From an uncultured Eubacteriales bacterium (GTDB lineage: Bacteria; Bacillota; Clostridia; Christensenellales; CAG-138), in NCBI GenBank assembly GCA_900549955.1, contig URQH01000006.1, positions 4,116-68,115 on the forward strand: a DNA stretch of 64,000 nt. The letters are read 5' to 3'. Below, piece by piece: positions 20,484-39,822 of this stretch. The number at the start of each line of letters is the position of its first letter. Within the stretch, counting starts at the first letter, position 1. Position numbers and translations under genes: made by a program. Under the pieces are notes generated by a model, which worked only from the letters and a program-made list of their open reading frames with translations, did no database searches and was not told where the DNA came from.

Positions 20484-20714
20484 TCAAAGAAACGCAATCA
20501 ACATACAATAGAACTCCGCAGCGCAGGAAAAGGCCTCGCGCTGAATGGGTTCGATGAATGTGCGCAGCGGCACCTCGACATCCCAATCCACAAACACCGT
20601 CCGGTCGCCGATCTGGCTGAGCAATGCTTCTTTGGTAATGGGGTATGTCACGTCCGCCATCCGCTTTTGTATGTAGTGGAACAGCGCCGGATAGGCAGGT
20701 TTTGTCATGCTCAT
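20484..20714 (-). CDS. Small conserved hypothetical protein (tentatively DUF2795-like)
   Basis: 76 aa. ATGA-coupled to the amidase stop. The pattern YPITKEALLSQIG...PLRTFIEPI..EAFSCAAEF resembles DUF2795. The family call is from memory only. Confidence 0.45.
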   Translation of the reverse strand: MSMTKPAYPALFHYIQKRMADVTYPITKEALLSQIGDRTVFVDWDVEVPLRTFIEPIQREAFSCAAEFYCMLIAFL

Positions 20715-21649
20715 GCGCGCTCCTCCTTCCGCGGTTCATAGGCAGCGTATCCGAGGCGCGGGTCCCCGTTGCCGCCGCAATCCGGGCAGCTTGCGCCGCG
20801 ATGATTAAACGAATACAGTGGGCTCGAATGCACGGCCTGTTCACGCATCTTGTCGATGATGCCCGGATACAGGTCCGCCTTGATGAGTCCCGGGCAGCCG
20901 TTGGACGCCTCGGTGATGATATTGCCGTCCGGACCGACGATCATGCTGCGGCCAAAGCAGGAACGCGCTTCATTCCTGGCCAGCCCGGAACAGTTGGCGC
21001 CCACGACATAGACCTGGTTAAAGTAGGCGCTGGCACGGTTGGTCAGTTCCCAGGCCTGGTACCACGGGTCCATATAATGCGTTGGCCGCACGATGACATT
21101 CGCCCCGCGATATGCCGCCTCGCGCCAGATCTCCGGATAATCGCCGTCGGCGCAGATGATGACGCCCAGGCGCGACCCTTTCGGCCCGTTGCACACGGTG
21201 CATTCCTTACCGGGCACCGCATTTTCAAACGGGATCCACGGGTTCATCTTTACATAGCGGTGCACGATTTCCCCGCGGTCGTCAATGACCATGGCAGTGT
21301 TTTCAAAACACTTTCCGGTCTTGCTCCGAATCAGCGGGTCAATGACGCTCCAGACGGAGAGCTTCTTGCAGCGTTCGCGCACGCGGGCGAGCTGCTCGCT
21401 CTGCTCCGTCATCAGCGCCTCATCGAAATTGACCGGCGCAAAGCCCTGGAAGCACGCCTCCGGGAACACCACGAGGTCCACGCCCGGGAAGGCGCTGACC
21501 GCCAGGTCGAGATAATCGAGCATGGTCTGCGTATTTTCGTCGAGTTCCTCCACTGTCTGCGCACCAATCGGGGCAAACTGCACGCAGCAGACGCTGAGTA
21601 CTTCCGTTTCAATCTTCCCGTTCAGCGCAAACAGATTGCCGATGTTCAT
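20711..21649 (-). CDS. Carbon-nitrogen hydrolase family protein, aliphatic amidase/formamidase-like
   Basis: 312 aa, strong RBS GGAGGGAGGAAG. E-K-C triad context: VVFPEACF (Glu), HRYVKMNPW (Lys), GVIICADGDYPEIWREAAYRGANVIVR (Cys). The Cys context closely resembles the AmiE/AmiF active-site region. Confidence 0.8.
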   Translation of the reverse strand: MNIGNLFALNGKIETEVLSVCCVQFAPIGAQTVEELDENTQTMLDYLDLAVSAFPGVDLVVFPEACFQGFAPVNFDEALMTEQSEQLARVRERCKKLSVWSVIDPLIRSKTGKCFENTAMVIDDRGEIVHRYVKMNPWIPFENAVPGKECTVCNGPKGSRLGVIICADGDYPEIWREAAYRGANVIVRPTHYMDPWYQAWELTNRASAYFNQVYVVGANCSGLARNEARSCFGRSMIVGPDGNIITEASNGCPGLIKADLYPGIIDKMREQAVHSSPLYSFNHRGASCPDCGGNGDPRLGYAAYEPRKEERA

Positions 21650-21685
21650 CCGTCTTCCTCCCTCCGTTTCAGGATGGAGACCGTC

Positions 21686-23017
21686 TCAGACGGTCTCCGC
21701 TCCCTCTTCAATCTGATGCCGGTCGTGCACGCCCATTGCGCTGAGCAGGCGGTCAAACAGCGGCACGCACACCGCGGACACGAGAATGCCAAACAGCGGC
21801 GGGATGCCGAAGGCCATCCGGTCGGTGATGAACGCGACGACCGCGCCCACGACGTACGCCAGCACCGGGCCGACGCGGAACAGCTTAAACTGGATGTACT
21901 GCAGCATCGGCAGGCGGCGCTTGTAGATGAAGAAGTAGTCGCCGAGCATGACGCCACCGAGCGGCGGAATGAAGATGCCCAGCAGCACGAGGAAGTTGAT
22001 CAGCTGCGCATAGATGCCGGTTACAGCCAGGATGATGGCAATGACCAGGCCGCCGATCAAAAACGGCGTCTTGCTCTTTTTGTTGAACATCTCCGCGCCC
22101 GCAACGCCCCACGCATACGCGCCTGCATGCGCCGTGGTCCAGATGTTGAGCGTCAGCACCACCAGAGCAAAGAAGATCAGCCCTGTGCGCAGCATGACGA
22201 CGATGAAGTCCGCCTCGTTGTAGGCAAGGCCGCCGATGATGCCCGCCAGCAGCATGATCGTGTTGCCGATCATGAACGCGACAAACCCGGCCCAGAAAGC
22301 GGATTTGGCGCTCTTTCCAAAGCGCGACCAGTTGCACGCCTGCGTGCCCATGCTTGCGAACGTGCCCACGATGGCCGTCATCGCCGTGGCGACGCTCATT
22401 TCCGCGCTTGGCACCACGTTTACAATGGCCGCGAAGCCGCCGTTGGCCTGCGCTGCCAGAATGGGGATGTAGATGACCAGCAGCAGAAGCGCCGGCACCG
22501 CCACGTAGGCGACCTTTTCCATGGCCTTGTAGCCCCAGATGGCCGTGACGCCAAAGACGATCGCCCAGCCGAGCGTGAACCAAATGGCCGCATCCGGCAG
22601 GTTGAACGCCGCGGAAAAGAGCTGGCCGGTATAGGCGCTGACATAGGCGTACCAGCCGATCTGCGTACCGCCGAGCAGCAGGCCGGCCCATTTGGAACCG
22701 CCTACCCCCAGGGTATAGCGCGAAAGCATGACGGAAGTCAGGCCGGTCTTGGCGCCGATGGCACAGTTGATCGCCACATATACGCCCAGCACGAGGTTGC
22801 CGACGAGCACGATCCACATCAGCTCCGAGAACGTGAACGCCGTAGCGATCTGCGCACCGGTCGACATCGTGGGCGCAAAGAACGTGATGCCGAGCAGCAC
22901 GGCCGCGATCGAGAAAAACGACCGGCGCGCTGACTGCGGCACGTGATCGATCGGATAATCCTGGTCGACCACTTTGTCTTCCGCCGTCGCAACTGGTTCT
23001 TTGGTCTTGGTTTCCAT
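21686..23017 (-). CDS. NCS1-family permease (cytosine/purine/uracil/allantoin type, CodB-like)
   Basis: ORF 21686..23035. Start moved to ATG 23017 (METKTKEP...), preceded by AAGGAGG. About 12 predicted TM segments. N-terminal ..IDHVPQSARRSFFSIAAVLLG.. is typical of CodB-like transporters. Confidence 0.85.
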   Translation of the reverse strand: METKTKEPVATAEDKVVDQDYPIDHVPQSARRSFFSIAAVLLGITFFAPTMSTGAQIATAFTFSELMWIVLVGNLVLGVYVAINCAIGAKTGLTSVMLSRYTLGVGGSKWAGLLLGGTQIGWYAYVSAYTGQLFSAAFNLPDAAIWFTLGWAIVFGVTAIWGYKAMEKVAYVAVPALLLLVIYIPILAAQANGGFAAIVNVVPSAEMSVATAMTAIVGTFASMGTQACNWSRFGKSAKSAFWAGFVAFMIGNTIMLLAGIIGGLAYNEADFIVVMLRTGLIFFALVVLTLNIWTTAHAGAYAWGVAGAEMFNKKSKTPFLIGGLVIAIILAVTGIYAQLINFLVLLGIFIPPLGGVMLGDYFFIYKRRLPMLQYIQFKLFRVGPVLAYVVGAVVAFITDRMAFGIPPLFGILVSAVCVPLFDRLLSAMGVHDRHQIEEGAETV

Positions 23018-23059
23018 GAGATACCTCCTTTTCATTGTGTCCCGTCTGTGGCTTTAGAA

Positions 23060-23103
23060 TTGTTACTGTAACAAAATTGATATTGCCATTGCTATTACTG
23101 TAA
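23060..23103. promoter_or_regulatory. Two copies of the palindromic core TTACTGTAA (candidate LacI-family operators)
   Basis: TTGTTACTGTAACAA (23060-23074) is a perfect 15-bp palindrome. A second core TTACTGTAA lies at 23095-23103. Both sit in the AT-rich divergent region between the permease operon and lacI. Confidence 0.45.
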
Positions 23104-23216
23104 CTATTATGTGCTTTGCTAGCAATTTTGTCAAGATGTTTTCAACAATTCCATATTTTCCGCCATATTGGGCAACATGCTTTTACAAATCAGCCGGCGG
23201 TTTTGTTTTTATGTGA

Positions 23217-23241
23217 TGTAACAAATTGACTGTTTGTTACA
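23217..23241. promoter_or_regulatory. Inverted repeat TGTAACAAA-N7-TTTGTTACA sharing the same half-site
   Basis: Arms at 23217-23225 and 23233-23241, ~50 nt upstream of the LacI-family gene start. Confidence 0.4.
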
Positions 23242-23288
23242 TTTGCCGTTTGTGATATACTGTCCACAAGCAGGTCCGTCTTGAAAGG

Positions 23289-24317
23289 GTGATCATCATC
23301 AATATTCGTGAAATTGCGCAATTGGCAGGCGTTTCCGTCGCGACCGTTTCCCGCACGCTCAATACGCCGGAACTCGTACAAGCGCAAACGCGCAAACGGG
23401 TGTTACAAGCCATCGAAGAAACCGGATATGTGCCGGTGCACACGCGCGCGGGAAAGGCAGATGCATTGCGCACGCTGGTGTTTCTATACAATTCGCCAGA
23501 CCACAGCTTTTATGAACCCGCCCTGTCCGGGCTGGAAAACGTTCTGCAGTCCCGCGGATATGCGGCTCTGCTCTGCCCCCTCAGCGCATCGGCCGAGCGC
23601 CGCGCCGTTCAGCTGGGCGCCATTCTTCAGCAAAAGCCCGCGGGCGTGATCTGGGCCTTGCGCGATTTTGACGCGGCGGAAGCAGAGCGTTTCGCTCGCA
23701 GCGATATCCCGCTCGTACTGGCGCGCAAGTACGACCAGGCGTCCCCCGCCTACCCGCACTGTTATACAGACTTTACGGTGGGCTCCTTTCGCATGACGCA
23801 ACACCTGCTCTCGCTGGGGCACCGCCACATCGCCCTACTTGTGGAAAAGGCCTCGTTCCAGTTTGTCGCCAGCTTCTGTGGAGGGTGGAGAAGGGCATAC
23901 TTTGAAAACAATCTCCCTTTTGATGAAAGCTGGATCGTACACACGCCCAACACCGCCGAAGGCGGCCACGACAAGGCGCGCGAAATGTTGCTCGCGCCGG
24001 ACGTGCCGGACGCCTTTTTCTGCGCGAGCAACGAGATGGCCTTCGGCGTGCTGCGCGCCGCACGCGAGCTGGGCATTGCCGTTCCCGGGCAGCTCGCCAT
24101 CGTCGGGTTTACGGATTCGCCGGTGGCCACGCTGTCGGAACCGCCGCTGACCACCATCCGCCAGCCCATTCAACAGCTAGGCGCCGTGGCCGCGCGCATG
24201 CTGATCGACCTGATCGAGTCCCCGCCGGACGCGGCCTGCCAGCCGCAGGAGATCGTCCTGCAACCGCAGCTCTGCATCCGCGGTTCCTGCGGCAGCCAAG
24301 CCCGCACAGAGCCGTGA
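23289..24317 (+). CDS. LacI family transcriptional regulator
   Basis: N-terminal HTH (NIREIAQLAGVSVATVSRTLN) and a periplasmic-binding-protein-like sugar-binding core. GTG start as in the ORF track (the exact start is uncertain). Confidence 0.9.
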   Translation: MIIINIREIAQLAGVSVATVSRTLNTPELVQAQTRKRVLQAIEETGYVPVHTRAGKADALRTLVFLYNSPDHSFYEPALSGLENVLQSRGYAALLCPLSASAERRAVQLGAILQQKPAGVIWALRDFDAAEAERFARSDIPLVLARKYDQASPAYPHCYTDFTVGSFRMTQHLLSLGHRHIALLVEKASFQFVASFCGGWRRAYFENNLPFDESWIVHTPNTAEGGHDKAREMLLAPDVPDAFFCASNEMAFGVLRAARELGIAVPGQLAIVGFTDSPVATLSEPPLTTIRQPIQQLGAVAARMLIDLIESPPDAACQPQEIVLQPQLCIRGSCGSQARTEP

Positions 24318-24483: not shown

Positions 24484-25767
24484 TCACGCCTCGAAGCGGG
24501 AACGGTCGATCCAGAGCCCAAGCGCCGGGTTGGGGATGAAGTAGACCTCTTCCCCGTCCGGCATGGTGTTGTATCCATAGTGCAGCTTTTCCGGGTCATA
24601 CCGCCGCACCGTTTCGTCATAGTCTGCCCAGCCAAAGTGCACGCCTTCGATCTCCTCGCGCGTGATGTGCGGCCGGACGGCATAGGTGATGGAGAACCGC
24701 CCGTCGGACGAGCCGTGGATCAGGTGCGCGGCCGCGCCCATGTTGTCGCGCAGGTCCTGGTTGGCCGGGTCGCGGAACAGCTCCAGCACGCGCAGGCGGC
24801 CGCAGTAGCCGTATTTCCGGATGAGTTTATCGATCTCCGGGTCCTCGCCAAAATGGCTGACGCCCGGCGCAAGCACGAGCAGCTCGCCGCCGTCCGCAAT
24901 CGCCATGCGCGTGCGATAGACCGATTTGTTGCCCAGCCAGGTGGTGTGGAACTCCTTCGGGTCCAGATATACGATGCACTTTTTGATGCCGGTTTCCACA
25001 AAGTCCATGTTCTTCTGCTGCGCCAGCGCAATGGCCTCTTCGAGCACCTTGCGCGTGTCGCCGATGAACAGGCCGTGCGTGCGGATGTGGCCGCCCGGCG
25101 CAGTCGTGACCGTCAGGGCAAACAAAATGGGCCGCTCGGACAGATAGTGCGCAAGCGCATAGTCCAGGATCTTGCGCACGGGCGTGTGGTCGCGCCCCAT
25201 CATGCGCTCCATGCCATACACGGCGCCGACCATGTGGCTCTTGTTGATCATGTCGCTGCCGCCCACGCCGACAAACAGGTTCTTCGAGTGGTTCGCCATG
25301 CCGATGACCTCGTGCGGCACCACCTGCCCGACGGACAGGATCAGCTCGTAGGCCGGGTCCATGACGCGGCGGTTGATCTCCACGCTCACGGGATCGTTCC
25401 ACAGCCCCTCCGTGATCTTCGTCAGGTAGCTGGCAGGTACCTCGCCCAGGCGCACCACGTCCGTGCGCCAGTTGTGCGGGATGAATTTTTCAAACGGGAT
25501 GTCGCCGAACATGTCGGCCGCTTCCGCCTCGGTGACCGGCACGTGCGTGCCAAGCGCAGGCAGGATGTCCACCTCGCAGCCCATGTCGGTCAGCAGGTGG
25601 TAGTAGATGTTTGTGATAAATCCGGCGTTGGAATGGTAACGCGTGTAGTCCGGCGGAATCAGCAGCGCCTTTTTGGGCGAACGCCCCTCGAGCGAGCGCA
25701 CCAGCGCGGCGCGCACGTCCTCGCGGCTCAGCCCCTCTTCCGTATCGGCACGATAAAACAGCTCCAT
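24484..25767 (-). CDS. LarA-superfamily (lactate racemase-like, DUF2088) protein; candidate nickel-pincer-dependent 2-hydroxyacid epimerase
   Basis: ORF 24484..25884. Start moved to ATG 25767 (MELFYRADTE) after AAGAGG. The motif VVPHEVIGMANHSKNLFVGVGGSDMINKSH gives H152-x9-K162-x15-H178, the same spacing I recall for H174/K184/H200 of L. plantarum LarA. Confidence 0.8.
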   Translation of the reverse strand: MELFYRADTEEGLSREDVRAALVRSLEGRSPKKALLIPPDYTRYHSNAGFITNIYYHLLTDMGCEVDILPALGTHVPVTEAEAADMFGDIPFEKFIPHNWRTDVVRLGEVPASYLTKITEGLWNDPVSVEINRRVMDPAYELILSVGQVVPHEVIGMANHSKNLFVGVGGSDMINKSHMVGAVYGMERMMGRDHTPVRKILDYALAHYLSERPILFALTVTTAPGGHIRTHGLFIGDTRKVLEEAIALAQQKNMDFVETGIKKCIVYLDPKEFHTTWLGNKSVYRTRMAIADGGELLVLAPGVSHFGEDPEIDKLIRKYGYCGRLRVLELFRDPANQDLRDNMGAAAHLIHGSSDGRFSITYAVRPHITREEIEGVHFGWADYDETVRRYDPEKLHYGYNTMPDGEEVYFIPNPALGLWIDRSRFEA

Positions 25768-25892
25768 ATCAGGCAACCTCTTTCTCTGAAAGTCAAATGC
25801 CGTCTCGTCCGACGGCAGGGGAATATGAAACGCATTCTGCGCCCGCGCCCGGAACCGGGCGCGGGCGCAGGCAGTATGCAGCATAAAACGGG

Positions 25893-27344
25893 TCAGACGT
25901 TGTACGTGGAAGCGGACGTGTTCCCGCCGTGCCCCGTCCAGTTGGTGTGGAAGAACTGGCCGCGCGGGCTGTCCAACCGCTCATAGGTGTGCGCGCCAAA
26001 GTAGTCGCGCTGGGCCTGCAGCAGGTTGGCCGGCAGCTTCTCGGTGGTATATCCGTCAAAGTAGCTGAGCGCGGAGGAGAACGCCGGCATCGGAATGCCA
26101 TGCCGCACCGCCTCGGCCACGACGTCGCGCCACGCGGGGACGAGCGCCTTGATGGTTTCCCCGAAATACGGGTCGAGCAGCAGGTTCCCGAGCTGTGGAT
26201 TCTTGTCGTACGCCTCTTTGATCTTGCCGAGGAACACCGAGCGGATGATGCAGCCGCCGCGCCACATGAGCGCGATGCCGCCATAGTTCAGGTTCCAGCC
26301 GTAGGTCTTGGCCGCGGCGCGCATGAGCGTATAGCCCTGCGCATACGAGATGATCTTCGACGCATACAGCGCTTTGCGCACCTTTTCAATGAACGCGGCG
26401 CGGTCGGCGCACTCGATCTGCACCCCAGCCTTGGGGAACGCCTTCGCCGCCTCGACCCGCTCTTCCTTCATGGCCGACAGGCAGCGGGCAAACACGGCCT
26501 CGCCGATCAACGTGAGCGGCACGCCCTCGTCAAGCGCGGCGATGCCCGTCCACTTGCCGGTACCCTTCTGGCCGGCGGTATCCAGGATCTTGTCGACGAT
26601 GGGCTGCCCATCGGTGTCCTTGTAGGCCAGGATGTCGCGCGTGATCTCGATCAAGTAGCTGTCCAGCTCCGTCTCGTTCCACGCCTTGAACACCTCGTGC
26701 ATCTCGTCCGCGCTCATGCCCAGGCCGTCGCGCATGAGCTGGTACGCCTCGCAAATGAGCTGCATGTCGCCGTACTCAATGCCGTTGTGCACCATCTTCA
26801 CAAAGTGGCCGGCGCCGTTTTCGCCCACCCAGTCGCAGCAGGGGGAGCCGTCCTCCACCTTCGCGCAGATGGCCTGGAACACGTCCTTCACAAACGGCCA
26901 TGCGGCCGGGGAACCGCCGGGCATCATGGACGGCCCCTTGAGCGCGCCCTCTTCGCCGCCGGACACGCCGGTGCCGATGTACAGCAGCCCCTTGGACTCC
27001 ACATACTGCGTCCTGCGGATGGTATCCGGGAAGTGGCTGTTGCCGCCGTCGATCAGGATGTCGCCCTTCTCCAGCAGCGGGATCAGCTGGTCGATCAGCT
27101 GGTCGACCGCGGCGCCCGCCTTGACCATCATCATCACGCGGCGGGGCTTCTTCAGGTTGGCCACCAGCTCTTCGAGCGAGTAGGTGCCGATGATGTTCAG
27201 GCCCTTGGCGCGGCCCTCCACAAAGTTCTTCACCTTGGACGTGGTGCGGTTGTACACCGCGACCGTAAAGCCCTTGGACTCCATGTTCATGACCAGGTTT
27301 TCACCCATGACCGCAAGGCCGATCAGGCCGATATCCGCTTTCAT
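25893..27344 (-). CDS. gnd: 6-phosphogluconate dehydrogenase (decarboxylating)
   Basis: 483 aa. MKADIGLIGLAVMGENLVMNMESKGF (NADP Rossmann fold) and conserved Gnd core motifs throughout. Confidence 0.95.
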   Translation of the reverse strand: MKADIGLIGLAVMGENLVMNMESKGFTVAVYNRTTSKVKNFVEGRAKGLNIIGTYSLEELVANLKKPRRVMMMVKAGAAVDQLIDQLIPLLEKGDILIDGGNSHFPDTIRRTQYVESKGLLYIGTGVSGGEEGALKGPSMMPGGSPAAWPFVKDVFQAICAKVEDGSPCCDWVGENGAGHFVKMVHNGIEYGDMQLICEAYQLMRDGLGMSADEMHEVFKAWNETELDSYLIEITRDILAYKDTDGQPIVDKILDTAGQKGTGKWTGIAALDEGVPLTLIGEAVFARCLSAMKEERVEAAKAFPKAGVQIECADRAAFIEKVRKALYASKIISYAQGYTLMRAAAKTYGWNLNYGGIALMWRGGCIIRSVFLGKIKEAYDKNPQLGNLLLDPYFGETIKALVPAWRDVVAEAVRHGIPMPAFSSALSYFDGYTTEKLPANLLQAQRDYFGAHTYERLDSPRGQFFHTNWTGHGGNTSASTYNV

Positions 27345-27414
27345 GATTCTACTCCTTTGATGTTTTATATAGTGGGATTTCCGTCGTCATGCCGCTCCCG
27401 TGCGGGAACGGGGT

Positions 27415-28473
27415 TCAGCGTTTCACACGGGCGTTGCCGCTCCAGACCGCCCAGACCTGCTCCTCGTCGGCCGGCTGCGCATAGTCGTTGAGCATGGTGG
27501 CCGCCAGCGCGCCGGTCGCCCAGCCAAAGTGCAGGCAGTCCTCGGCACTCCAGCCCTTGAGCACGCCGTACAGCAGGCCGCCCACAAACCCGTCGCCGCC
27601 GCCGATGCGATCCAGCACCTGGATCGGCCGCGGTTCGGCCACGTGCCACTCGCCGTCGCGCAGCAGGATGGCGCCCCAGAGGTGCTCGTTCGCGCTGACG
27701 ACCTGGCGCAGCGTGGTGGCAAACGTCGTAGCACCGGGATATTCCTTCTGCACGCGCAGGATCATCTCCTTGAAGCTGTCGAGCTTGGACGCGAGGTCCT
27801 TGCCGCCCGCCTCGGGCCCCTGGACGCCCAGGCACAGCTGGAAGTCCTCTTCGTTGCCGATCAGGATGTCGGACACGGACGCGATCTCGCGGAAGATCGC
27901 GGAGAGCTCCTCCTCGCGGCCCTTCCAGAAGGACGCCCGATAGTTGAGGTCAAACGAAATGCGCGTGCCATATTTCTTGGCGGCGCGCGCCAGCTCCAGG
28001 CAGAAGATGCCCGTCTCATGCGACAGCGCAGCGATCAGGCCGGAGAGGTGCAGCACCTCCACGCCCTCCTCGCCAAAGATACGCGGCAGGTCGAAGTCCT
28101 TCACGTTCAGCGTCCGCCCCACTTCCCCGGCACGATCGTTCTGCACGCGCGGGCCACGCAGACCAAAGCCGCTGTCGGCAATGTTGAACTGGTGCCGGTA
28201 GCCCCACGGGCCGCCCTGCGGCACTTCCTTGCCCTCATACTCCATGTTGCGGCTGCGCAGGTCGGCCTTGATGAACGCGGCGATGGGGGAACCCTCGACA
28301 AACGTGGTCAGCACCTTGACCGGCAGACCCAGCGCGGCCGGCACGGTGGCGACGTTGGTCTCGGCGCTCGTGGCCTGCATGTAGAAATTGTGGCTGATGT
28401 GTACGGGTTGACGGTCGACCGGCGTGATGCGCACGCCCATGCTGGTCGGGACGACGAGTGCGTAACGTTTCAT
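27415..28473 (-). CDS. kdgK: PfkB-family sugar kinase, 2-dehydro-3-deoxygluconokinase-like
   Basis: ORF 27415..28614. Start moved to ATG 28473 (MKRYALVVPTSMGVRITP) after AGGAGGAG. PfkB C-terminal motif DRIGGGDGFVGGLLYG. Substrate assignment is tentative. Confidence 0.75.
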   Translation of the reverse strand: MKRYALVVPTSMGVRITPVDRQPVHISHNFYMQATSAETNVATVPAALGLPVKVLTTFVEGSPIAAFIKADLRSRNMEYEGKEVPQGGPWGYRHQFNIADSGFGLRGPRVQNDRAGEVGRTLNVKDFDLPRIFGEEGVEVLHLSGLIAALSHETGIFCLELARAAKKYGTRISFDLNYRASFWKGREEELSAIFREIASVSDILIGNEEDFQLCLGVQGPEAGGKDLASKLDSFKEMILRVQKEYPGATTFATTLRQVVSANEHLWGAILLRDGEWHVAEPRPIQVLDRIGGGDGFVGGLLYGVLKGWSAEDCLHFGWATGALAATMLNDYAQPADEEQVWAVWSGNARVKR

Positions 28474-28492
28474 GTGTGGACTCCTCCTGAAC

Positions 28493-29914
28493 TTATTTGA
28501 TGATCTCGTCAAAGCGGAAATAGCGCAGCGCGTTGTTGTAGCTGATGTCGCGCACGATCTGCCCCAGCGCCTCGAGATCGGCCGGGTACTCGCCGTTTTC
28601 CACCAGCGTGCCAAATACGTTGCACAGGATGCGGCGGAAGTATTCGTGCCGCGTGTAGCTCAAAAAGCTGCGACTGTCCGTGAGCATGCCGACAAACGTG
28701 CTGACCACGCCCAGGTTCATGAGGTCGGTCAGCTGCTTTTCCATACCGGCCTTGTGGTCGTTGAACCACCAGGCGCTGCCCATCTGCACGCGCCCCGGCA
28801 GCTCTGCGTCGGTCTGGAAACAGCCCATGACGGTGCCGATGATGCCGTTGTCCGCAGGGTTGAGCGAATAGAGGATCGTGCGCGGCAACGCATTGGCCTT
28901 CTCGAGCAGGTCGAGGAAGCGGGCCAGCCGCGGCGCGTTGTTGCCCTCGTCGTTCATCGCGTCGAACCCGGTGTCCGGCCCCAGCCGCTCGAACATGCGG
29001 GTCGAGTTGTTGCGGATGCAGCCAAAGTGGAGCTGCATGACCCAGCCGCGCGCACGGTATTCTTCGGCGCAAGCCAGCAGCAGCGCCGTCTGAAACGCCT
29101 CCGACTCGCGGCGGCTGACCGGTTCGCCCGCGCGTCCCTTGCGGAAGATGTCCTCCAGCTCGGCCTCCGTGGCCAGCTCGCAAAGCGCCGTGTCGATGCC
29201 GTGGTCGCTCACGCGGCAGCCGTGCGCATCGAAATATGCAATGCGCTCCCGCAGCGCGTCCCGCAACCCGTCCATGCTCTGGATCGGGTGCCCGCACGCC
29301 GCCTCCAGGCGCTGGAGATATTCGCCAAAGTCGGGCTTGTCCGCGCGCATGGCCTTGTCCGGCCGAAACGCCGGCAGCACGGCCACCGGGCACGTCGGGT
29401 CTGCGGCGATGCGCTCGTGCGCCTTCAGGTCGTCCGCCGGATCGTCGGTGGTGCAGATGAGCCGGACGTCGCTCTTTTTGATGATGCCGCGCACGCTCAT
29501 GTCCGGCTGCTGCAGGATCTCGTTGCAGGCGCGGTAGACGGCCTTGCCATTGCACCCGGTGAGCGGTTCGTCAATGCCGAAATACCGCTGCAGCTCCAGA
29601 TGCGTCCAGTGATAGAGCGGATTGCCGACGAGCTTTGGCACCGTCTCCGCCCAGGCGAGGAACTTGTCCTCCGGGTCGGCGTCGCCGGTCACCAGGCGCT
29701 CCGGCACGCCGGCGGAGCGCATGGCGCGCCACTTGTAGTGATCGCCGCCCAGCCACACGTCGGTAATGGACGTGTAGCGGCGGTCGTCCGCGATCTCAGC
29801 CGGGTTGATGTGGCAATGGTAATCGACAATGGGCATACGCGCCGCATGCTCGTGATACAGTGTCTTTGCCGCGTCAGAGGTCAGCAGAAAATCCTTGTCC
29901 AGAAACGGCTTCAT
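28493..29914 (-). CDS. uxaC: Glucuronate isomerase
   Basis: ORF 28493..30046. Start moved to ATG 29914 (MKPFLDKDFLLTSDAAKTLYHEHAARMPIVDYHCHI, the canonical UxaC N-terminus). Confidence 0.95.
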   Translation of the reverse strand: MKPFLDKDFLLTSDAAKTLYHEHAARMPIVDYHCHINPAEIADDRRYTSITDVWLGGDHYKWRAMRSAGVPERLVTGDADPEDKFLAWAETVPKLVGNPLYHWTHLELQRYFGIDEPLTGCNGKAVYRACNEILQQPDMSVRGIIKKSDVRLICTTDDPADDLKAHERIAADPTCPVAVLPAFRPDKAMRADKPDFGEYLQRLEAACGHPIQSMDGLRDALRERIAYFDAHGCRVSDHGIDTALCELATEAELEDIFRKGRAGEPVSRRESEAFQTALLLACAEEYRARGWVMQLHFGCIRNNSTRMFERLGPDTGFDAMNDEGNNAPRLARFLDLLEKANALPRTILYSLNPADNGIIGTVMGCFQTDAELPGRVQMGSAWWFNDHKAGMEKQLTDLMNLGVVSTFVGMLTDSRSFLSYTRHEYFRRILCNVFGTLVENGEYPADLEALGQIVRDISYNNALRYFRFDEIIK

Positions 29915-30009
29915 AGATACCCTCTTTTCCTGTTGTTCGGTATGGTGTTCCAGATGGGTCAGGCACGCCGTAGCATGCCGCAAGAGGCCAAACGCCCCCT
30001 GTTGCAGCC

Positions 30010-30029
30010 AGTATATCACTAGTATATCA
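30010..30029. promoter_or_regulatory. Direct duplication of the 9-mer AGTATATCA (candidate GntR-family operator)
   Basis: AGTATATCA-ct-AGTATATCA at 30010-30018 and 30021-30029. The reverse complement TGATATACT recurs at 30139-30147, and a partial copy TGATATAT lies at 30108-30115. Confidence 0.4.
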
Positions 30030-30118
30030 GAAAAGCAATACGGCAAATGACTTTTTTCCGAAATCCAGAAAAATAAGGAGGTTTCCCGTAAAAACCGCCC
30101 GAAAATGTGATATATTTG

Positions 30119-30147
30119 TTTGACATTCCCGGCAATGGTGATATACT
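30119..30147 (+). promoter_or_regulatory. Near-consensus sigma-A promoter of uxaE-uxuB-gntR, overlapped by the 9-mer motif
   Basis: TTGACA (30119-30124), 17 nt, TATACT (30142-30147). The -10 box lies inside TGATATACT. Confidence 0.55.
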
Positions 30148-30204
30148 AGTCTCGTACGATTCTTTGCAACCGGCCCACAACATACTTGAGGAGGAAACTG
30201 TTCC

Positions 30205-31653
30205 ATGCACAGCACCATCGAGTCTCTCCTTGCCACCCTCCGCAGCCGCGGCGATCTGCGCGTCTATGACCGCTCTGCCGATGCGGCGGAGGGCACCGCA
30301 TGCGCCATCGTCAGCCGCGCCGGGCAGAAATACCTTGCGCTCGCCGGCGACCGCGCCGCCCGGTTTGCGGGCCACGATGAGGGCGGCGTACGGCTCTGCC
30401 CGCTCACCGTGGAGAATGCGCAGGCGCTGCAGGCGCTGTTCCCCTATGCCAGGCCTGCCAGCCACGCCGGCCACGCGTTCACCATGGGTCTTGGCGACCG
30501 GCTCGGCCTCGCCACGCCCGGCCACGTGCGCGCCATTGCCGGATACGGCGTCTATCCGGTGCTCGCGCAGCAGTCCATCCGGGAGCTGACGCTCACGAAT
30601 CGCACGTTTGCCGACGTGATCGCCGCCGCCACGTTCGGCGTGTTCCAGGAGGGCTACAAGGGCGGCTACGGCGCCGACGGCGACCACCTCAAAACGAAGG
30701 AAGAGATCCGCTATGCGCTCGAGAGCGGCTGCACGATGATCACGCTGGACTGTTCCGAGCACATCGACATCCACGCCGCCGCCAGTTCCGATGCGGAAGT
30801 GGACGCCGCCTATGCCGCGCTGCCGGCAGAAGTGCGCGACCACTATGAAGCCGCGTATCTGGGCAAGGAGCTGCCGGTCATCGGGCAGCTGAGCGCCGCG
30901 GAGCTCAAACGCATCGTCCTCGTATTCTGGAAGGCCGTCCGCCACGCGGAAAGCTGCTACCGTTATATCGACGAGATCAAGACCGCGGACGTGGACTTCG
31001 AGCTGTCCATCGATGAAACGCGCACGATCACCACGCCTGCCGAACACTTCGTGGTGGCGCAGGAACTCGCCGGGCAGGGCGTGCATCCGGTCAGCGTCGC
31101 GCCGCACTTCTCCGGCGAATTTGAAAAGGGCATCGAATACAGCGGCAACCTGAACGACTTTGCGCGCGACTTCATCATCCACCAGAAAATCGCAGATCAC
31201 TTCGGCTACAAGCTGTCCGTCCATTCCGGCTCGGACAAATTTTCCGTGTTCTCCACGGTCGGCCGCGTGACGCATTGCCACGTACACGTCAAGACCGCGG
31301 GCACCAACTGGCTGGAGGCCATGCGCGTCGTCGCGCTGCACGATCCGGCGCTCTACCGCCGCGCGCACAAATTTGCGCTTGAGCATCGCGCCGAGGCGGA
31401 AAAATACTATCACGTGTCCACCGACCCGAACGAGATCCCGAACATCGACCTGCAGAGCGACGCCTATCTGCCGGAATACCTGCAGCTGCCCGCCTCGCGG
31501 CAGACGCTCCATATCGCCTATGGCCTGCTGCTCAACGAAGCGTGGTTCAAAGAGGCGTTTTTCCCGTTCATGGCCGCGCACGAAGAAGAATATTACGCCG
31601 GGCTGGTGCAGCATATCGGCCGGCACCTGCTCTACCTCACGGCGGAGCGCTGA
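30205..31653 (+). CDS. uxaE: Tagaturonate/fructuronate epimerase family protein
   Basis: 482 aa. The motif FTMGLGDRLGLATPGH and the overall size match the UxaE family as I recall it from Thermotoga. Context with uxaC and a mannitol-dehydrogenase-family reductase supports the call. Confidence 0.75.
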   Translation: MHSTIESLLATLRSRGDLRVYDRSADAAEGTACAIVSRAGQKYLALAGDRAARFAGHDEGGVRLCPLTVENAQALQALFPYARPASHAGHAFTMGLGDRLGLATPGHVRAIAGYGVYPVLAQQSIRELTLTNRTFADVIAAATFGVFQEGYKGGYGADGDHLKTKEEIRYALESGCTMITLDCSEHIDIHAAASSDAEVDAAYAALPAEVRDHYEAAYLGKELPVIGQLSAAELKRIVLVFWKAVRHAESCYRYIDEIKTADVDFELSIDETRTITTPAEHFVVAQELAGQGVHPVSVAPHFSGEFEKGIEYSGNLNDFARDFIIHQKIADHFGYKLSVHSGSDKFSVFSTVGRVTHCHVHVKTAGTNWLEAMRVVALHDPALYRRAHKFALEHRAEAEKYYHVSTDPNEIPNIDLQSDAYLPEYLQLPASRQTLHIAYGLLLNEAWFKEAFFPFMAAHEEEYYAGLVQHIGRHLLYLTAER

Positions 31654-31677
31654 AATCAGAATCAAAGGAGAACGAGC

Positions 31678-33297
31678 ATGAAACTTTGCAATGACACCAT
31701 CCTGCAGCAGCGCGCCGCACTTGAAGCCAAGGGCTATGCGCTGCCCACGTTCGACCGCGCGGCCGTCACGGCCAATACCGCCGCCCGCCCGGAATGGGTG
31801 CACTTCGGCGCCGGCAACATCTTCCGCGCCTTTATCGCCAACCTGAACCAGTCCCTGCTGAATGCAGGGCTGATGGATACCGGCATCGTCGTGGCGGAGG
31901 GGTTTGACGCGGAGATCCTGGACGCGGCATACCGGCCGTTCGACAACCTCTCCGTGCTGGCCACGCTGTGCGCCGACGGGCGGATTGAAAAGACCGTCAT
32001 CGCCAGCGTCGTCAACAGCCTGGGCATGGACCGCGGCACGGAGGACTGGGCGCAGCTCGAAGCCGCATTCCGCTCGCCGTCGCTGAAGATGGCCAGCCTC
32101 ACGATCACCGAAAAGGGCTACAACATCAAGGACGGGCACGGGGACTATTTCCTCGCCGTACTCGCCGACATGGAGCAGGGGCCGGCGCAGGCCGGCAGCT
32201 ACATCGGCAAGATCGCCGCGCTGTGCCACGCGCGCTTTGCCGCCGGCGGCGCGCCGATCGCCCTGGTCAGCATGGACAACTGCTCGCACAACGGCTCGCG
32301 GCTCGAAGCGGCGGTGCTCGCCTTTGCCGACGCGTGGGCCGAGCGCGGCCTGTGCGCCGACGGCTTTGCCGCCTATGTGCGCGACCGCAGCCGCGTCTCC
32401 TTCCCGTGGAGCATGATCGACAAGATCACGCCGCGGCCGGACGATTCCGTACGTGAAATGCTGGAAGCGGACGGGCTGGAGGACATGGGCGTGCGCGTGA
32501 CCGGCCGCCGCTCCTTCGTCGCGCCGTTTGTCAACGCCGAGGAGGCGCAGTACCTGGTCATCGAGGACGCGTTCCCGAACGGGCGCCCGCCGCTCGAGCG
32601 CGCCGGCGTCATCTTTGCCTCGCGCGAAGTGGTCGACATGGTGGAGACCATGAAGGTCTGCACGTGCCTGAACCCGCTGCACACGTGCCTCGCCGTGCTC
32701 GGCTGCCTGCTGGGCTTTACCCGCATCTCCGCCGAAATGCAGGATGCGGACCTGAAACGGCTCGTGGAGATCGTCGGCTACCGCGAGGGGCTGCCCGTCG
32801 TGGTCGACCCCGGCGTCATCAGCCCGCGCGCGTTCATCGACGAGGTCATCGGCAAGCGCTTCCCGAACCCGTTTTTACAGGATACGCCGCAGCGCATCGC
32901 GACCGATACCTCCCAGAAGATCGCCATCCGGTTCGGCAACACGATCAAAAAGTACGCGGCGTCTGACACGCTCCACGTGCAGGATCTCAAGCTCATCTCC
33001 TTCGTGCTGGCCGCATGGTGCCGCTATCTGATGGCGGTGGACGACAACGGGCAGCCGTTCCAGCCGAGCGACGACCCGCTCCTGCCGATGCTCACGCCGC
33101 GCTTTGCAGCCGTCACGCTCGGGCAGCCGTGCGACGTGCACGCCGTACTCGAGCCCGTGCTCTCCGACGAGCGGATCATGGGCGTCGACCTGTATGCGGT
33201 GGGTCTCGGCGAGACGGTCGAGGCGCGCTTTGCCGAGCTCATCACCGGGCCGGGCGCCGTGCGCGCCGCGCTGCACCGTCACGTTTCTGAAGCATAA
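31678..33297 (+). CDS. uxuB: Mannitol dehydrogenase family oxidoreductase, fructuronate (mannonate) reductase-like
   Basis: 539 aa. N-terminal Rossmann fold VHFGAGNIFRAF, typical of long-chain mannitol dehydrogenase family enzymes. Operon partner of uxaE. Confidence 0.75.
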   Translation: MKLCNDTILQQRAALEAKGYALPTFDRAAVTANTAARPEWVHFGAGNIFRAFIANLNQSLLNAGLMDTGIVVAEGFDAEILDAAYRPFDNLSVLATLCADGRIEKTVIASVVNSLGMDRGTEDWAQLEAAFRSPSLKMASLTITEKGYNIKDGHGDYFLAVLADMEQGPAQAGSYIGKIAALCHARFAAGGAPIALVSMDNCSHNGSRLEAAVLAFADAWAERGLCADGFAAYVRDRSRVSFPWSMIDKITPRPDDSVREMLEADGLEDMGVRVTGRRSFVAPFVNAEEAQYLVIEDAFPNGRPPLERAGVIFASREVVDMVETMKVCTCLNPLHTCLAVLGCLLGFTRISAEMQDADLKRLVEIVGYREGLPVVVDPGVISPRAFIDEVIGKRFPNPFLQDTPQRIATDTSQKIAIRFGNTIKKYAASDTLHVQDLKLISFVLAAWCRYLMAVDDNGQPFQPSDDPLLPMLTPRFAAVTLGQPCDVHAVLEPVLSDERIMGVDLYAVGLGETVEARFAELITGPGAVRAALHRHVSEA

Positions 33298-33374
33298 ACA
33301 TCCCGCATCCGGCCCGCCGGCCCGTCGCCGGCGGGCCAGTCGCCATTCAGCGCTGGAGAACAGGAGGCTTCCCG

Positions 33375-34070
33375 ATGGTCCAGACCGCAATCCCCCCGAA
33401 AAAAGCGGGCGAGAACGCCCGGCAATACGCCTACCGCGTGCTGTACAACGGCATCATGACGCTGGACTTCCCGCCAGGCATGGTGCTTGTGGATGCAGAG
33501 CTGTCGCAGGCGCTGCAGATCAGCCGCACGCCCATCCGTGAGGCCATCGTCTCGCTGGTCGAGTCCAAGCTCGTGACCGTGTACCCCCAGCGTTCCAGCA
33601 CGGTGTCGCGCATCGACCTGGACGCGGTCGAAGAGGGCGTGTTCCTGCGCTACCACACCGAGCGCGCCATCTTCCGTGAGGCGGTGCAAAAGGCCGGCGG
33701 AGCCGACCTCGCGCGATTGCGGGAAAATGTGGAACAGCAGCGCGTGCATCTCGAGAAAGGGGATCTGGACCGGTACATGGAACTGGACAACGAGTTTCAC
33801 AAGCTGCTCTACCTCGCCGCAGGCAAGCCCTGGACCTGGGCGACCGTCATGCGCATCGTGACGCATCACGACCGCGTGCGGCGCCTGCAGGTGCGCCTTG
33901 GCACCGAGCAGCTCTGGCCGGCGCACGAGGAGCACCGCGTGCTCTTCCGCGCCGTCATGACACGTTCGGAACGGGATATGGACGACTTTCTGTATGAACA
34001 CCTGACCGCCGGCTACCGCGGCGCGCTGCCGGAGCTGATGCAAAAATATCCCGACTATTTTGCCATTTAA
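33375..34070 (+). CDS. GntR family (FadR/FCD subfamily) transcriptional regulator
   Basis: Winged HTH (LSQALQISRTPIREAIVSLVESKLV) plus a C-terminal FCD-like helical domain. Last gene of the uxaE operon. Confidence 0.85.
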   Translation: MVQTAIPPKKAGENARQYAYRVLYNGIMTLDFPPGMVLVDAELSQALQISRTPIREAIVSLVESKLVTVYPQRSSTVSRIDLDAVEEGVFLRYHTERAIFREAVQKAGGADLARLRENVEQQRVHLEKGDLDRYMELDNEFHKLLYLAAGKPWTWATVMRIVTHHDRVRRLQVRLGTEQLWPAHEEHRVLFRAVMTRSERDMDDFLYEHLTAGYRGALPELMQKYPDYFAI

Positions 34071-38135: not shown

Positions 38136-38162
38136 CGTTCCTCGCCCCTCTTGTGATGATAT

Positions 38163-38191
38163 AGTATATCATCTGCGTTGAATCTGCACAA
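38163..38191 (-). promoter_or_regulatory. Candidate sigma-A promoter of metF-(activation domain)-metH
   Basis: Minus strand: TTGTGC (38191-38186), 17 nt, TATACT (38168-38163), ~30 nt upstream of the metF ATG. Confidence 0.4.
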
Positions 38192-38373: not shown

Positions 38374-39810
38374 CTACAGGGAAAGCAGCGAAATGGCGTC
38401 CGATATGGTCTTTTCCATCGCCTCTCGGCCGTATTTATTGACCTCTTCCTTGTTCTTTTCGCCATGCGTCAGGCAACCCGCGCCGCCGATACAGCCGCCG
38501 ACGCAAGCCATGCCCTCGATAAAGTTCCCGCCCAGCACCTTTTGCCCGGCGCGCGCCTTCAGCAGCGCCGCGCGGCACGCCTCGATGCCGTCGCACGCGA
38601 TGGGCCTCGCCTCGAACGTCGCATCCAGCCCCTGCTCCTTGAGCGCCTCCACCACCGCGTCGGACAGGCCGCCGCTGCGGGCAAAGATGCGGCCATAATA
38701 GGACGCATTGTCCAGCACGCCCTCGCCGAGCGTCGTGATGTCCACGCCTGCGCCGTCAAACAGCGCCTGCAGCTCCTCAAACGTGATGACACTGTCGATG
38801 TACGGGCGGACGCGCTCCTGCTGGAACTCCATCTTCTTGGCCGTGCACGGCCCGATGAACACCACGCGCGCGCCCGGTTCGGTCTTTTTGATGTACTGCG
38901 CAATGGTCGCCGCGGGCGAGAGGTTGTGGGAAATGTGCTCCACAAGCGTTGGGAACTGCTTGTGGATATAGTCCACAAACGCCGGGCAGCAGGAGCTGGT
39001 CAGAAAGCCCTTTTCAGCGAGCTCCGCGGCCTCGGCGTACGCAACCATGTCCGCGCCGAGCGCCGCCTCCACGACGTGATAGAAGCCGAGCCTGTGCAGG
39101 CCCTCGATCACCTGGCCAAGTTTCGCGTACACGAACTGGCTGGAGATCGACGGGGCGACGACGGCATAGACCTTGTACGCCTCGCCGCCCGCGCTGCCGC
39201 GCAGCAGGGCGATGACGTCGAGCAGGAAGGATTTGTCCGCAATGGCGCCGAACGGGCACTGGTACACGCACGCGCCGCAGGAGATGCACTTGTCGTTGTC
39301 GATGTGCGCGCTGCCATCCTCGTTCCTCGAAATGGCCTTGACCTTGCACGCGCGCTCGCACGGCCGCTTCTGGTCCGCAATCGCGCCATACGGGCACACC
39401 TTGGCGCATGCGCCGCATTCGACGCACTTGCTCTTGTCGATGTACGCCTTCTGGTGCGCGTCGAATGTGATGGCGCCGCGTTTGCAGGCGTCCTCGCACC
39501 GGTGGGCGATGCAGCCGCGGCACGCCTCCGTCACGACGTGGCCGCTCATCGGGCACTCGTCGCAGGCGATGTCCAGCACCTCGATCACGTTCGGATTGCT
39601 GCGGTCGCCGCCCATGGCCAGCTTCACACGCTCGGACAGGATGGCCCGCTCCTTGTACACGCAGCAGCGCATGGTGGGAATCTTGCCGGGGATGATGGTC
39701 TTGGGAATGTCCGTCACGTGCTCCAGCAGTTCGTCGGCATATGCCAGCCGCACGACCTCGCGCAGCACCTTGTATTTGAGATACTGTACCTTGGTGTCAA
39801 ACTTTCTCAT
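38374..39810 (-). CDS. [FeFe] hydrogenase, monomeric ferredoxin-type (group B-like) with an intact-looking H-cluster site
   Basis: 478 aa. Several CxxCxxCxxxCP ferredoxin motifs (CVECGACAKVCP, CISCGACVYQCP). H-domain motifs TSSCCPAF, GPCTAKKMEF and EGMACVGGCIGGAG. Confidence 0.85.
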   Translation of the reverse strand: MRKFDTKVQYLKYKVLREVVRLAYADELLEHVTDIPKTIIPGKIPTMRCCVYKERAILSERVKLAMGGDRSNPNVIEVLDIACDECPMSGHVVTEACRGCIAHRCEDACKRGAITFDAHQKAYIDKSKCVECGACAKVCPYGAIADQKRPCERACKVKAISRNEDGSAHIDNDKCISCGACVYQCPFGAIADKSFLLDVIALLRGSAGGEAYKVYAVVAPSISSQFVYAKLGQVIEGLHRLGFYHVVEAALGADMVAYAEAAELAEKGFLTSSCCPAFVDYIHKQFPTLVEHISHNLSPAATIAQYIKKTEPGARVVFIGPCTAKKMEFQQERVRPYIDSVITFEELQALFDGAGVDITTLGEGVLDNASYYGRIFARSGGLSDAVVEALKEQGLDATFEARPIACDGIEACRAALLKARAGQKVLGGNFIEGMACVGGCIGGAGCLTHGEKNKEEVNKYGREAMEKTISDAISLLSL

Positions 39811-39822
39811 GCCCTCTCCCCC

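Follow-up and report, generated by a model that had tools for sequence, protein, structure and literature searches.

A hexuronate locus of a gut Clostridia member with a predicted exit from mannonate to 6-phosphogluconate through a group-18 LarA homologue and a PfkB-family kinase

Introduction

How can a bacterium finish the breakdown of hexuronates from a locus that carries the upper half of the Ashwell pathway (UxaC-UxaB/UxuB-UxaA/UxuA-KdgK-KdgA) but no dehydratase or aldolase beside it? The question is raised by a divergent gene cluster of an uncultured Eubacteriales bacterium (Clostridia; CAG-138), which lies at positions 24484-34070 of a 64,000-nucleotide stretch of contig URQH01000006.1 (assembly GCA_900549955.1), hereafter the window. 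Next to hexuronate genes the cluster holds a homologue of the nickel enzyme LarA, a PfkB-family kinase and gnd, the gene for 6-phosphogluconate dehydrogenase. The preliminary description of the window had suggested that a LarA-like gene and gnd inside a hexuronate operon open an exit from mannonate through gluconate to the pentose phosphate pathway. Our analysis supports this suggestion by the family signature of the LarA homologue, by the conserved linkage of its gene to gnd and the kinase gene, and by the finding that neither UxuA nor 2-keto-3-deoxy-6-phosphogluconate (KDPG) aldolase recurs beside these genes in relatives. We regard the whole reading, from hexuronate through mannonate and 6-phosphogluconate to ribulose-5-phosphate, as probable.

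On this reading, UxaC would convert glucuronate to fructuronate and galacturonate to tagaturonate, UxaE would convert tagaturonate to fructuronate, and a reductase of the mannitol dehydrogenase family would reduce fructuronate to D-mannonate. The LarA homologue would invert C2 and the PfkB-family kinase would phosphorylate C6, jointly giving 6-phosphogluconate, and Gnd would carry out the oxidative decarboxylation of this compound to ribulose-5-phosphate. Such a route would bypass UxuA, KdgK and KdgA, and it would be redox-neutral, with one NAD(P)H used by the reductase and one NADPH made by Gnd. Both divergent operons would be driven from a single control region of 281 bp, presumably under a GntR/FCD regulator encoded in the locus.

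Results

The LarA homologue of the window belongs to the hexonate-epimerase branch of its family. It passes the NCBIfam equivalog NF052594, "nickel-dependent putative hexonate epimerase" (Table 1), whereas other LarA-family models give at most 41 bits, and its Lar_N domain (PF09861) is recognised with E = 2.8e-11. NF052594 corresponds to group 18 of the LarA homologues (LarAH) defined by Desguin 2020 (PMC7583248), for which a signature of 20 positions, D R H H E V K H V W L N K (S/G) A A L I H S, has been published (PMC7583248). Aligned with ACP_2683 of Acidobacterium and with Acid345_4308, the window protein matches 20 of the 20 positions (D40, R43, H75, H152, E153, V154, K162, H178, W277, L278, N280, K281, A345-A347, H348, L349, I350, H351 and S353), the variable S/G position being G, as in Koribacter and S. 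thermophila. The catalytic residues H75 and H152, the cofactor-tethering K162 and the Ni-ligand H178, equivalent to H108, H174, K184 and H200 of LarA, are invariant in the alignment, and the spacing of LarA is kept (H to K +10, K to H +16). Residues typical of D-gluconate 2-epimerases are E, V, A and H at the positions of LarA F175, F176, W358 and T359 (PMC11770544), and the homologue has these GntE-type residues as E153, V154, A347 and H348. Its identity is 88% to the nearest named relative, from Candidatus Aphodomorpha, 50% to ACP_2683 and 45% to a diatom protein, the latter two being group-18 members. The sole match in the PDB is 4NAR (TM0442), with E = 7e-27 over residues 13-358, which is the apo-structure of GntE2 from Thermotoga maritima. 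Together these features predict a nickel-pincer-nucleotide-dependent hexonate C2-epimerase.

The preliminary description had noted that LarA homologues include gluconate/mannonate 2-epimerases, and the literature confirms it, since GntE activity was demonstrated in 2020 (PMC7583248). Interconversion of mannonate and gluconate has been measured only for GntE1, GntE2, LarAH10 and LarAH15 (PMC7583248, PMC11770544). GntE2 and GntE1 epimerise D-mannonate (PMC7583248), and LarAH15 of Phytophthora nicotianae is a narrow-spectrum GntE with a Km of 9.4 mM and a kcat of 111 per second on D-mannonate (PMC11770544). All eukaryotic LarAHs were placed on the GntE branch in 2024 (PMC11770544), and those of P. 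infestans and a diatom were assigned to group 18 in the 2020 table (PMC7583248). Because the P. infestans protein sits in group 18, we infer that the group probably already has one characterised member, LarAH15.

The linkage between the LarA homologue, gnd and the kinase gene is conserved far beyond this genome. Taking one genome per species, we collected 80 loci encoding relatives of the LarA homologue (57-88% identity) from Clostridia, Spirochaetes, Acholeplasma, Kiritimatiellae and Verrucomicrobia. Of the 42 loci with flanks of at least 3.5 kb on each side, 37 have gnd adjoining the LarAH gene. A further 3' or 5' neighbour of gnd could be seen in 44 loci, and in 37 of these an orthologous kinase gene (61-87% identity) stands directly next to gnd, at a median gap of ~28 bp. 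The distance between gnd and the LarAH gene is below 130 bp in 27 loci and ~850-950 bp in ~20 loci, where the gap is filled by a short-chain dehydrogenase (SDR) gene. The arrangement kinase-gnd-(SDR)-LarAH18 is a mobile, conserved cassette. Its conservation across Clostridia, Spirochaetes and Acholeplasma means that the linkage is not a local accident, and 6-phosphogluconate dehydrogenase as the invariant partner argues that the end product of the upstream steps is fixed as 6-phosphogluconate. Public metagenomes hold more than 8000 close homologues of the cassette, which is abundant in gut and rumen Clostridia.

Hexuronate genes accompany the cassette in part of the set, with UxaC in 20 of these loci, UxaE in 12 and an orthologue of the long-chain reductase (49-76% identity) in 9. 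SDR-type fructuronate reductases exist, so the SDR between gnd and LarAH could act as the reductase in those ~20 loci. A Pfam tally of 184 further neighbouring open reading frames in 50 loci returned mostly AraC regulators, SDRs, xylose-isomerase-like TIM barrels and GntR regulators, and UxuA, KDPG aldolase and LarB, LarC and LarE were not among the recurrent families. For the genome itself, the Pfam scans covered every likely gene of the window and ~10 kb past each window end (~84 kb in total). These scans found no UxuA, UxaA, KDPG aldolase (kdgA/eda) or GntK, in agreement with the preliminary description, which had listed the dehydratases and the aldolase as missing from the window; the dehydratase and aldolase of the Ashwell pathway are absent from the window and ~20 kb of flanks.

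Several relatives depart from the common layout. Cassette loci lacking a PfkB gene contained no FGGY or P-loop gluconate kinase. Two of them (L066:1-2146 and L067:676-2858) have a PFK-family protein (PF00365, ~410-426 aa) and a HAD phosphatase preceding gnd-(SDR)-LarAH. An aldose-1-epimerase-family gene directly adjoins LarAH18 and gnd at L061:11256-12197 and L070:4071-4985, a neighbour that can be set beside the aldose-1-epimerase-like candidate for the 6-phosphomannonate epimerase of Lactobacillus suebicus (Valk 2020). Close to the gnd-LarAH18 pair of another locus (L054:2101-4586), a second, canonical LarA paralogue (Lar_N + LarA_C) stands beside a D-2-hydroxyacid dehydrogenase.

The kinase of the cassette forms a small, discrete PfkB subclade and is not a canonical KdgK. 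It goes no further in public annotation than "sugar kinase" or "PfkB family", and it reaches the cut-off of no NCBIfam equivalog, the KdgK models NF052444, NF041332 and NF040938 giving 32, 96 and 49 bits against cut-offs of 400, 440 and 400, respectively; GntK models are absent from its NCBIfam matches, and FGGY kinases are absent from the families of the neighbour tallies. When compared with 1.84 billion cluster representatives, the kinase matched 144 at E <= 1e-30. Full-length representatives of 42-67% identity scored 294-531 bits, P0262 (45%) scored 288 bits, and the remainder at most 184 bits. Kinases of the cassette type share the motifs T/C-S-A-E-[ST]-N and N-D-R and an insertion P-W-G-x-R-H, and 38 kinases from cassette loci all have TSAETN and NDR. 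P0262 and more distant relatives keep G-[GA]-E-x-N and Y-[DN]-R at these places, as do 2AFB and 4GM6 (G-G/A-E and Y-D/N-R), the KdgK structure having GGAExN and Y-D-R. Relative to KdgK, GG is replaced by TS and YDR by NDR in the cassette kinase, and both arginines (NDR and NYR) are retained.

These replacements bear on the substrate. We take the glycine and tyrosine positions of KdgK to contact the 2-keto-3-deoxy end of its substrate, and the arginines of NDR and NYR occupy positions that presumably bind the carboxylate in KdgK structures. If these assignments are right, the motif changes and the retained arginines suggest a kinase re-tuned to a sugar acid with hydroxyl groups at C2 and C3, for instance gluconate or mannonate, and we predict a gluconate or mannonate 6-kinase. 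The preliminary description had considered a gluconate kinase, a dual kinase and an ordinary 2-keto-3-deoxygluconate (KDG) kinase. The last of these is disfavoured in its canonical form by the failed models and the changed motifs, the window kinase having neither GGAExN nor Y-D-R and standing next to gnd, not to a KDPG aldolase, and the first is in line with the prediction. We found no description of gluconate kinase specificity in the PfkB family.

The remaining genes of the locus complete two divergent arms (Table 1). The layout given in the preliminary description, with uxaC, the kinase gene, gnd and the LarA-like gene on the minus strand and uxaE, the reductase gene and gntR on the plus strand, agrees with the Pfam and NCBIfam scans, with frame-specific G+C and with independent public gene calls, in which uxaC starts at 29914, 9 bases further in. 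Gaps of 19-125 bp between the genes of each arm are consistent with two divergent operons. The reductase, previously labelled uxuB-like, belongs to the mannitol dehydrogenase family and scores under the NCBIfam cut-offs of both UxuB (fructuronate reductase) and UxaB (tagaturonate reductase). It is predicted to be a fructuronate reductase yielding D-mannonate. Identical locus proteins occur in the metagenome-assembled genome GCA_964329195.1 and in many gut metagenome contigs.

Table 1. Genes and control-region elements of the hexuronate locus (window coordinates).
Feature	Position	Strand	Evidence or remark
LarA homologue, group 18 (gntE-like), 427 aa	24484-25767	minus	Pfam Lar_N; NCBIfam NF052594 614 bits (cut-off 500)
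gnd, NADP-dependent decarboxylating 6-phosphogluconate dehydrogenase	25893-27344	minus	TIGR00873 775 bits; PF00393 + PF03446
PfkB-family sugar-acid kinase, 352 aa	27415-28473	minus	PF00294
uxaC, glucuronate/galacturonate isomerase	28493-29923	minus	PF02614 667 bits; NF002794 621 bits
Divergent control region, 281 bp	29924-30204		between uxaC and uxaE; motif, repeat and promoter scans
Tandem 9-mer copies AGTATATCA	30010-30018 and 30021-30029	minus	minus-strand copies of TGATATACT
One-mismatch copy TGATATATT	30108-30116		
12-mer TGATATACTAGT	30139-30150		contains the plus-strand 9-mer, 30139-30147
uxaE, tagaturonate/fructuronate 3-epimerase	30205-31653	plus	PF16257 551 bits, full length
Long-chain mannitol-dehydrogenase-family reductase (UxaD/UxuB-like)	31678-33297	plus	PF01232 + PF08125
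GntR/FCD transcriptional regulator	33375-34070	plus	PF00392 + PF07729

The two arms share one control region with a repeated 9-mer, as had been noticed before, and the repeat is real and enriched. Three exact copies of TGATATACT lie in the 281 bp, two of them in tandem on the minus strand and one on the plus strand (Table 1), and 10 matches with at most one mismatch occur in the whole window against 1.28 expected, a number reached by 0 of 100 shuffles. The 12-mer TGATATACTAGT forms a perfect inverted repeat spanning 109 bp. The part of the earlier proposal that took the 9-mer for an operator motif holds less well. A promoter-like sequence TTGACA-16-TGaTATACT at 30120-30147 is near consensus, with 11 of 12 positions matched, and the plus-strand copy of the 9-mer coincides with its TG-extended -10 element. 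Further exact copies stand at 23253-23261, 36 bp upstream of a LacI gene, and at 38163, 28 bp upstream of metF, a gene with no hexuronate connection, the latter copy within the palindrome TGATATAGTATATCA (38157-38171). The copies before metF and the LacI gene suggest the preferred extended -10 box of the organism rather than a hexuronate-specific operator.

With this overlap and these two genes, the 9-mer as a pure operator was rejected as the sole reading, and the 9-mer is at least a promoter element. In a related locus (L001) the -35 box and both the tandem and the inverted copy survive within an intergenic region that has changed elsewhere. Because the tandem and inverted copies are conserved there, the 9-mer may also be a binding site of the GntR/FCD protein, with a dual role as promoter and operator; this pairing of regulator and operator is what we infer from the repeats.

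Other features were recorded around these genes. A terminator-like hairpin with a weak T-tail (25798-25817, minus strand) lies within the 125 bp that separate gnd from the gene of the LarA homologue; hits of this kind in the region number 7 against 8.8 in shuffled sequence, so there is no excess. The LacI-family regulator gene (23289-24317, plus strand) is part of a group adjoining the locus (20711-24317) and is divergent from genes for a carbon-nitrogen hydrolase (20711-21649, minus strand) and an NCS1-type cytosine/purine/allantoin permease (21686-23035, minus strand), which are unusual partners for a LacI regulator. The window has ~65% G+C, and its other genes, which include SpoIIE, [FeFe]-hydrogenases, AdhE and Lon paralogues, indicate an anaerobe of the Clostridia type. 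Three adjoining minus-strand genes at 38374-42664 look like a sensory-hydrogenase signalling module. One (38374-39810) codes for a protein that resembles [FeFe]-hydrogenases and carries ferredoxin domains, the next (39823-40995) for a SpoIIE/PP2C phosphatase, and the last (40988-42664) for another hydrogenase-like protein, which has a PAS domain at its C-terminus. Near the window start, a large BspA-type leucine-rich-repeat protein (41-2386; PF13306, 407 bits) has five repeat stretches.

Discussion

The locus is a well-supported further example of a route whose idea has been published since 2012, and not a new pathway. The UxaR-regulon operon of T. maritima, aldH-pelB-gnd-uxaR-uxaE-uxaD-gntE-gntK, is induced on pectin and its uxaR is of the GntR type (Rodionov 2013, PMC3750489); the scheme set out here had been proposed for it by Rodionova 2012, as cited in PMC3750489. 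Like the window locus, this operon combines gnd, a GntR-type regulator, uxaE, a mannitol-dehydrogenase-type reductase, a LarA-family epimerase and a kinase, and leads from hexuronate through mannonate to 6-phosphogluconate, so that the GntR/FCD regulator of the window is the apparent counterpart of UxaR. The two systems differ in the epimerase, which here belongs to group 18 and shares just 24% identity with GntE2, a member of group 20, and in the kinase, which here is of the PfkB family and in T. maritima is GntK, presumably an FGGY-type enzyme. Moreover, uxaC lies inside the locus here, the layout is divergent, and the genes come from a mesophile of the gut that belongs to the Clostridia.

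Two further published systems frame the finding. Group 18, named "putative hexonate epimerase", was listed in the 2020 supplement with gnd as a neighbour in 32%, an SDR in 36%, a COG0524 kinase in 16% and UxaC in 12% (PMC7583248). The window protein passes the group model and carries the full signature, and nothing essential differs; compared with that table, our sampling is denser, the linkage reaches 84-88% with complete flanks, and the kinase subclade is defined. The isomerase-phosphoketolase hybrid pathway of L. suebicus (PMC6978723) likewise runs by UxaC, UxaE and UxuB to mannonate and on to 6-phosphogluconate and Gnd, is redox-neutral and does without UxuA, KdgK and KdgA; its order of kinase before epimerase comes from cell extracts only, with the genes not assigned, whereas here candidate genes are in hand. 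With the Ashwell pathway the locus shares the upper half (UxaC and the reductase) and a kinase that is a distant KdgK relative. It differs from that pathway in that the locus holds no dehydratase or aldolase, neither of which recurs next to the cassette in related genomes, and in the divergence of the kinase at motif positions that we take to be substrate-contacting in KdgK structures.

Several observations weigh against the proposed route. In Kiritimatiellae and Verrucomicrobia the LarAH gene is a solitary one, surrounded by housekeeping genes that give no hint of its function, and the window protein is distant from the proven GntE2 (TM0442). Group 18 has no assayed bacterial enzyme, and this kinase clade has no assayed member. 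The best solved relative of the kinase is KdgK, the KDG kinase of T. maritima (2AFB, E = 2e-32). The Km of GntE enzymes for mannonate is high, at 9-120 mM (PMC7583248, PMC11770544), which leaves room for another native substrate. No larB, larC or larE was found in ~84 kb of this genome or by the cassette in the 80 related loci, and the scans of window and flanks found no hexuronate transporter. A parallel UxuA-KdgK-KdgA route may also be encoded elsewhere in the genome, since T. maritima has both (PMC3750489).

The order of the two steps between mannonate and 6-phosphogluconate is the point on which the proposed route divides. By analogy with Thermotoga and, probably, Phytophthora, we lean towards inversion of C2 on free mannonate, with the epimerase acting before the kinase. 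The only assayed relatives, namely GntE2, GntE1 and probably the group-18 enzyme LarAH15, turn over free D-mannonate with a kcat of up to ~200 per second. The opposite order, in which the PfkB protein would phosphorylate mannonate at C6 and the group-18 LarA homologue would act as a 6-phosphomannonate/6-phosphogluconate 2-epimerase, seems rather unlikely, although it has substantial points in its favour. Extracts of L. suebicus convert mannonate to 6-phosphomannonate and this to 6-phosphogluconate, with no direct conversion of mannonate to gluconate and with the genes left unassigned (Valk 2020, PMC6978723), and among the papers searched we found no later one naming them. Furthermore, 44 loci never contain a conventional FGGY or P-loop gluconate kinase but one dedicated, co-inherited kinase clade, and the Km of GntE for free mannonate is millimolar. 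However, the candidate kinases of L. suebicus are GntK homologues and not PfkB proteins, its candidate epimerase is aldose-1-epimerase-like (PMC6978723), and no clear basic or phosphate-binding residues specific to group 18 were identified from sequence alone. Should the kinase act first, the LarA homologue would be the first enzyme of its family on a phosphorylated sugar acid, and both orphan activities of the L. suebicus extracts would have their genes in the cassette. Even with the epimerase first, gluconate would be the substrate of a kinase of the PfkB family.

We consider it improbable that the locus is of the ordinary Ashwell type, with the kinase acting as KdgK, uxuA and kdgA/eda lying elsewhere, and Gnd and the LarA homologue serving another hexonate or 2-hydroxyacid or only a side branch. 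Such a locus would fit the observations that the best characterised relatives of the kinase are KDG kinases, that T. maritima carries both the kdgAK-uxuBA and the gntEK routes (PMC3750489), and that 2 loci have KduI in the vicinity of the cassette. Nevertheless, the kinase falls far below every KdgK equivalog cut-off, it no longer has GG and YDR, the motifs of its KdgK-like relatives, and in 37 loci it is joined in operon order to gnd and not to an aldolase, with UxuA and the aldolase not recurring as neighbours. Even less credible is an inversion one step earlier, in which the LarA homologue would convert fructuronate (5-dehydro-D-mannonate) to 5-dehydro-D-gluconate for reduction to D-gluconate by the reductase or the SDR and then phosphorylation: fructuronate is, by its chemistry, also a 2-hydroxy acid at the relevant carbon, an SDR stands between gnd and LarAH in ~20 loci and 5-ketogluconate reductases are SDRs, but the assayed GntEs accept mannonate, the window reductase is of the UxuB/UxaB family, which reduces fructuronate or tagaturonate, and we know of no LarA homologue acting on a keto-uronate.

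To the proposed route through mannonate and 6-phosphogluconate our analysis contributes three points. New here are the strength of the linkage, a PfkB subclade of dedicated kinases that diagnostic motifs define, and a kinase and LarAH18 pair to which the orphan activities, mannonate kinase and 6-phosphomannonate epimerase, could concretely be assigned as candidates. Pectin and glucuronoxylan rank among the main components of fibre, and the cassette is abundant in the Clostridia of gut and rumen. Annotation pipelines that look for uxuA and kdgA would score its carriers as unable to complete hexuronate catabolism, though they probably use the redox-neutral exit through Gnd. The locus also offers candidate genes for the phosphorylation and C2 epimerisation of mannonate and gluconate, and such genes interest biotechnology as a means to ferment galacturonate in a redox-neutral way (PMC6978723).

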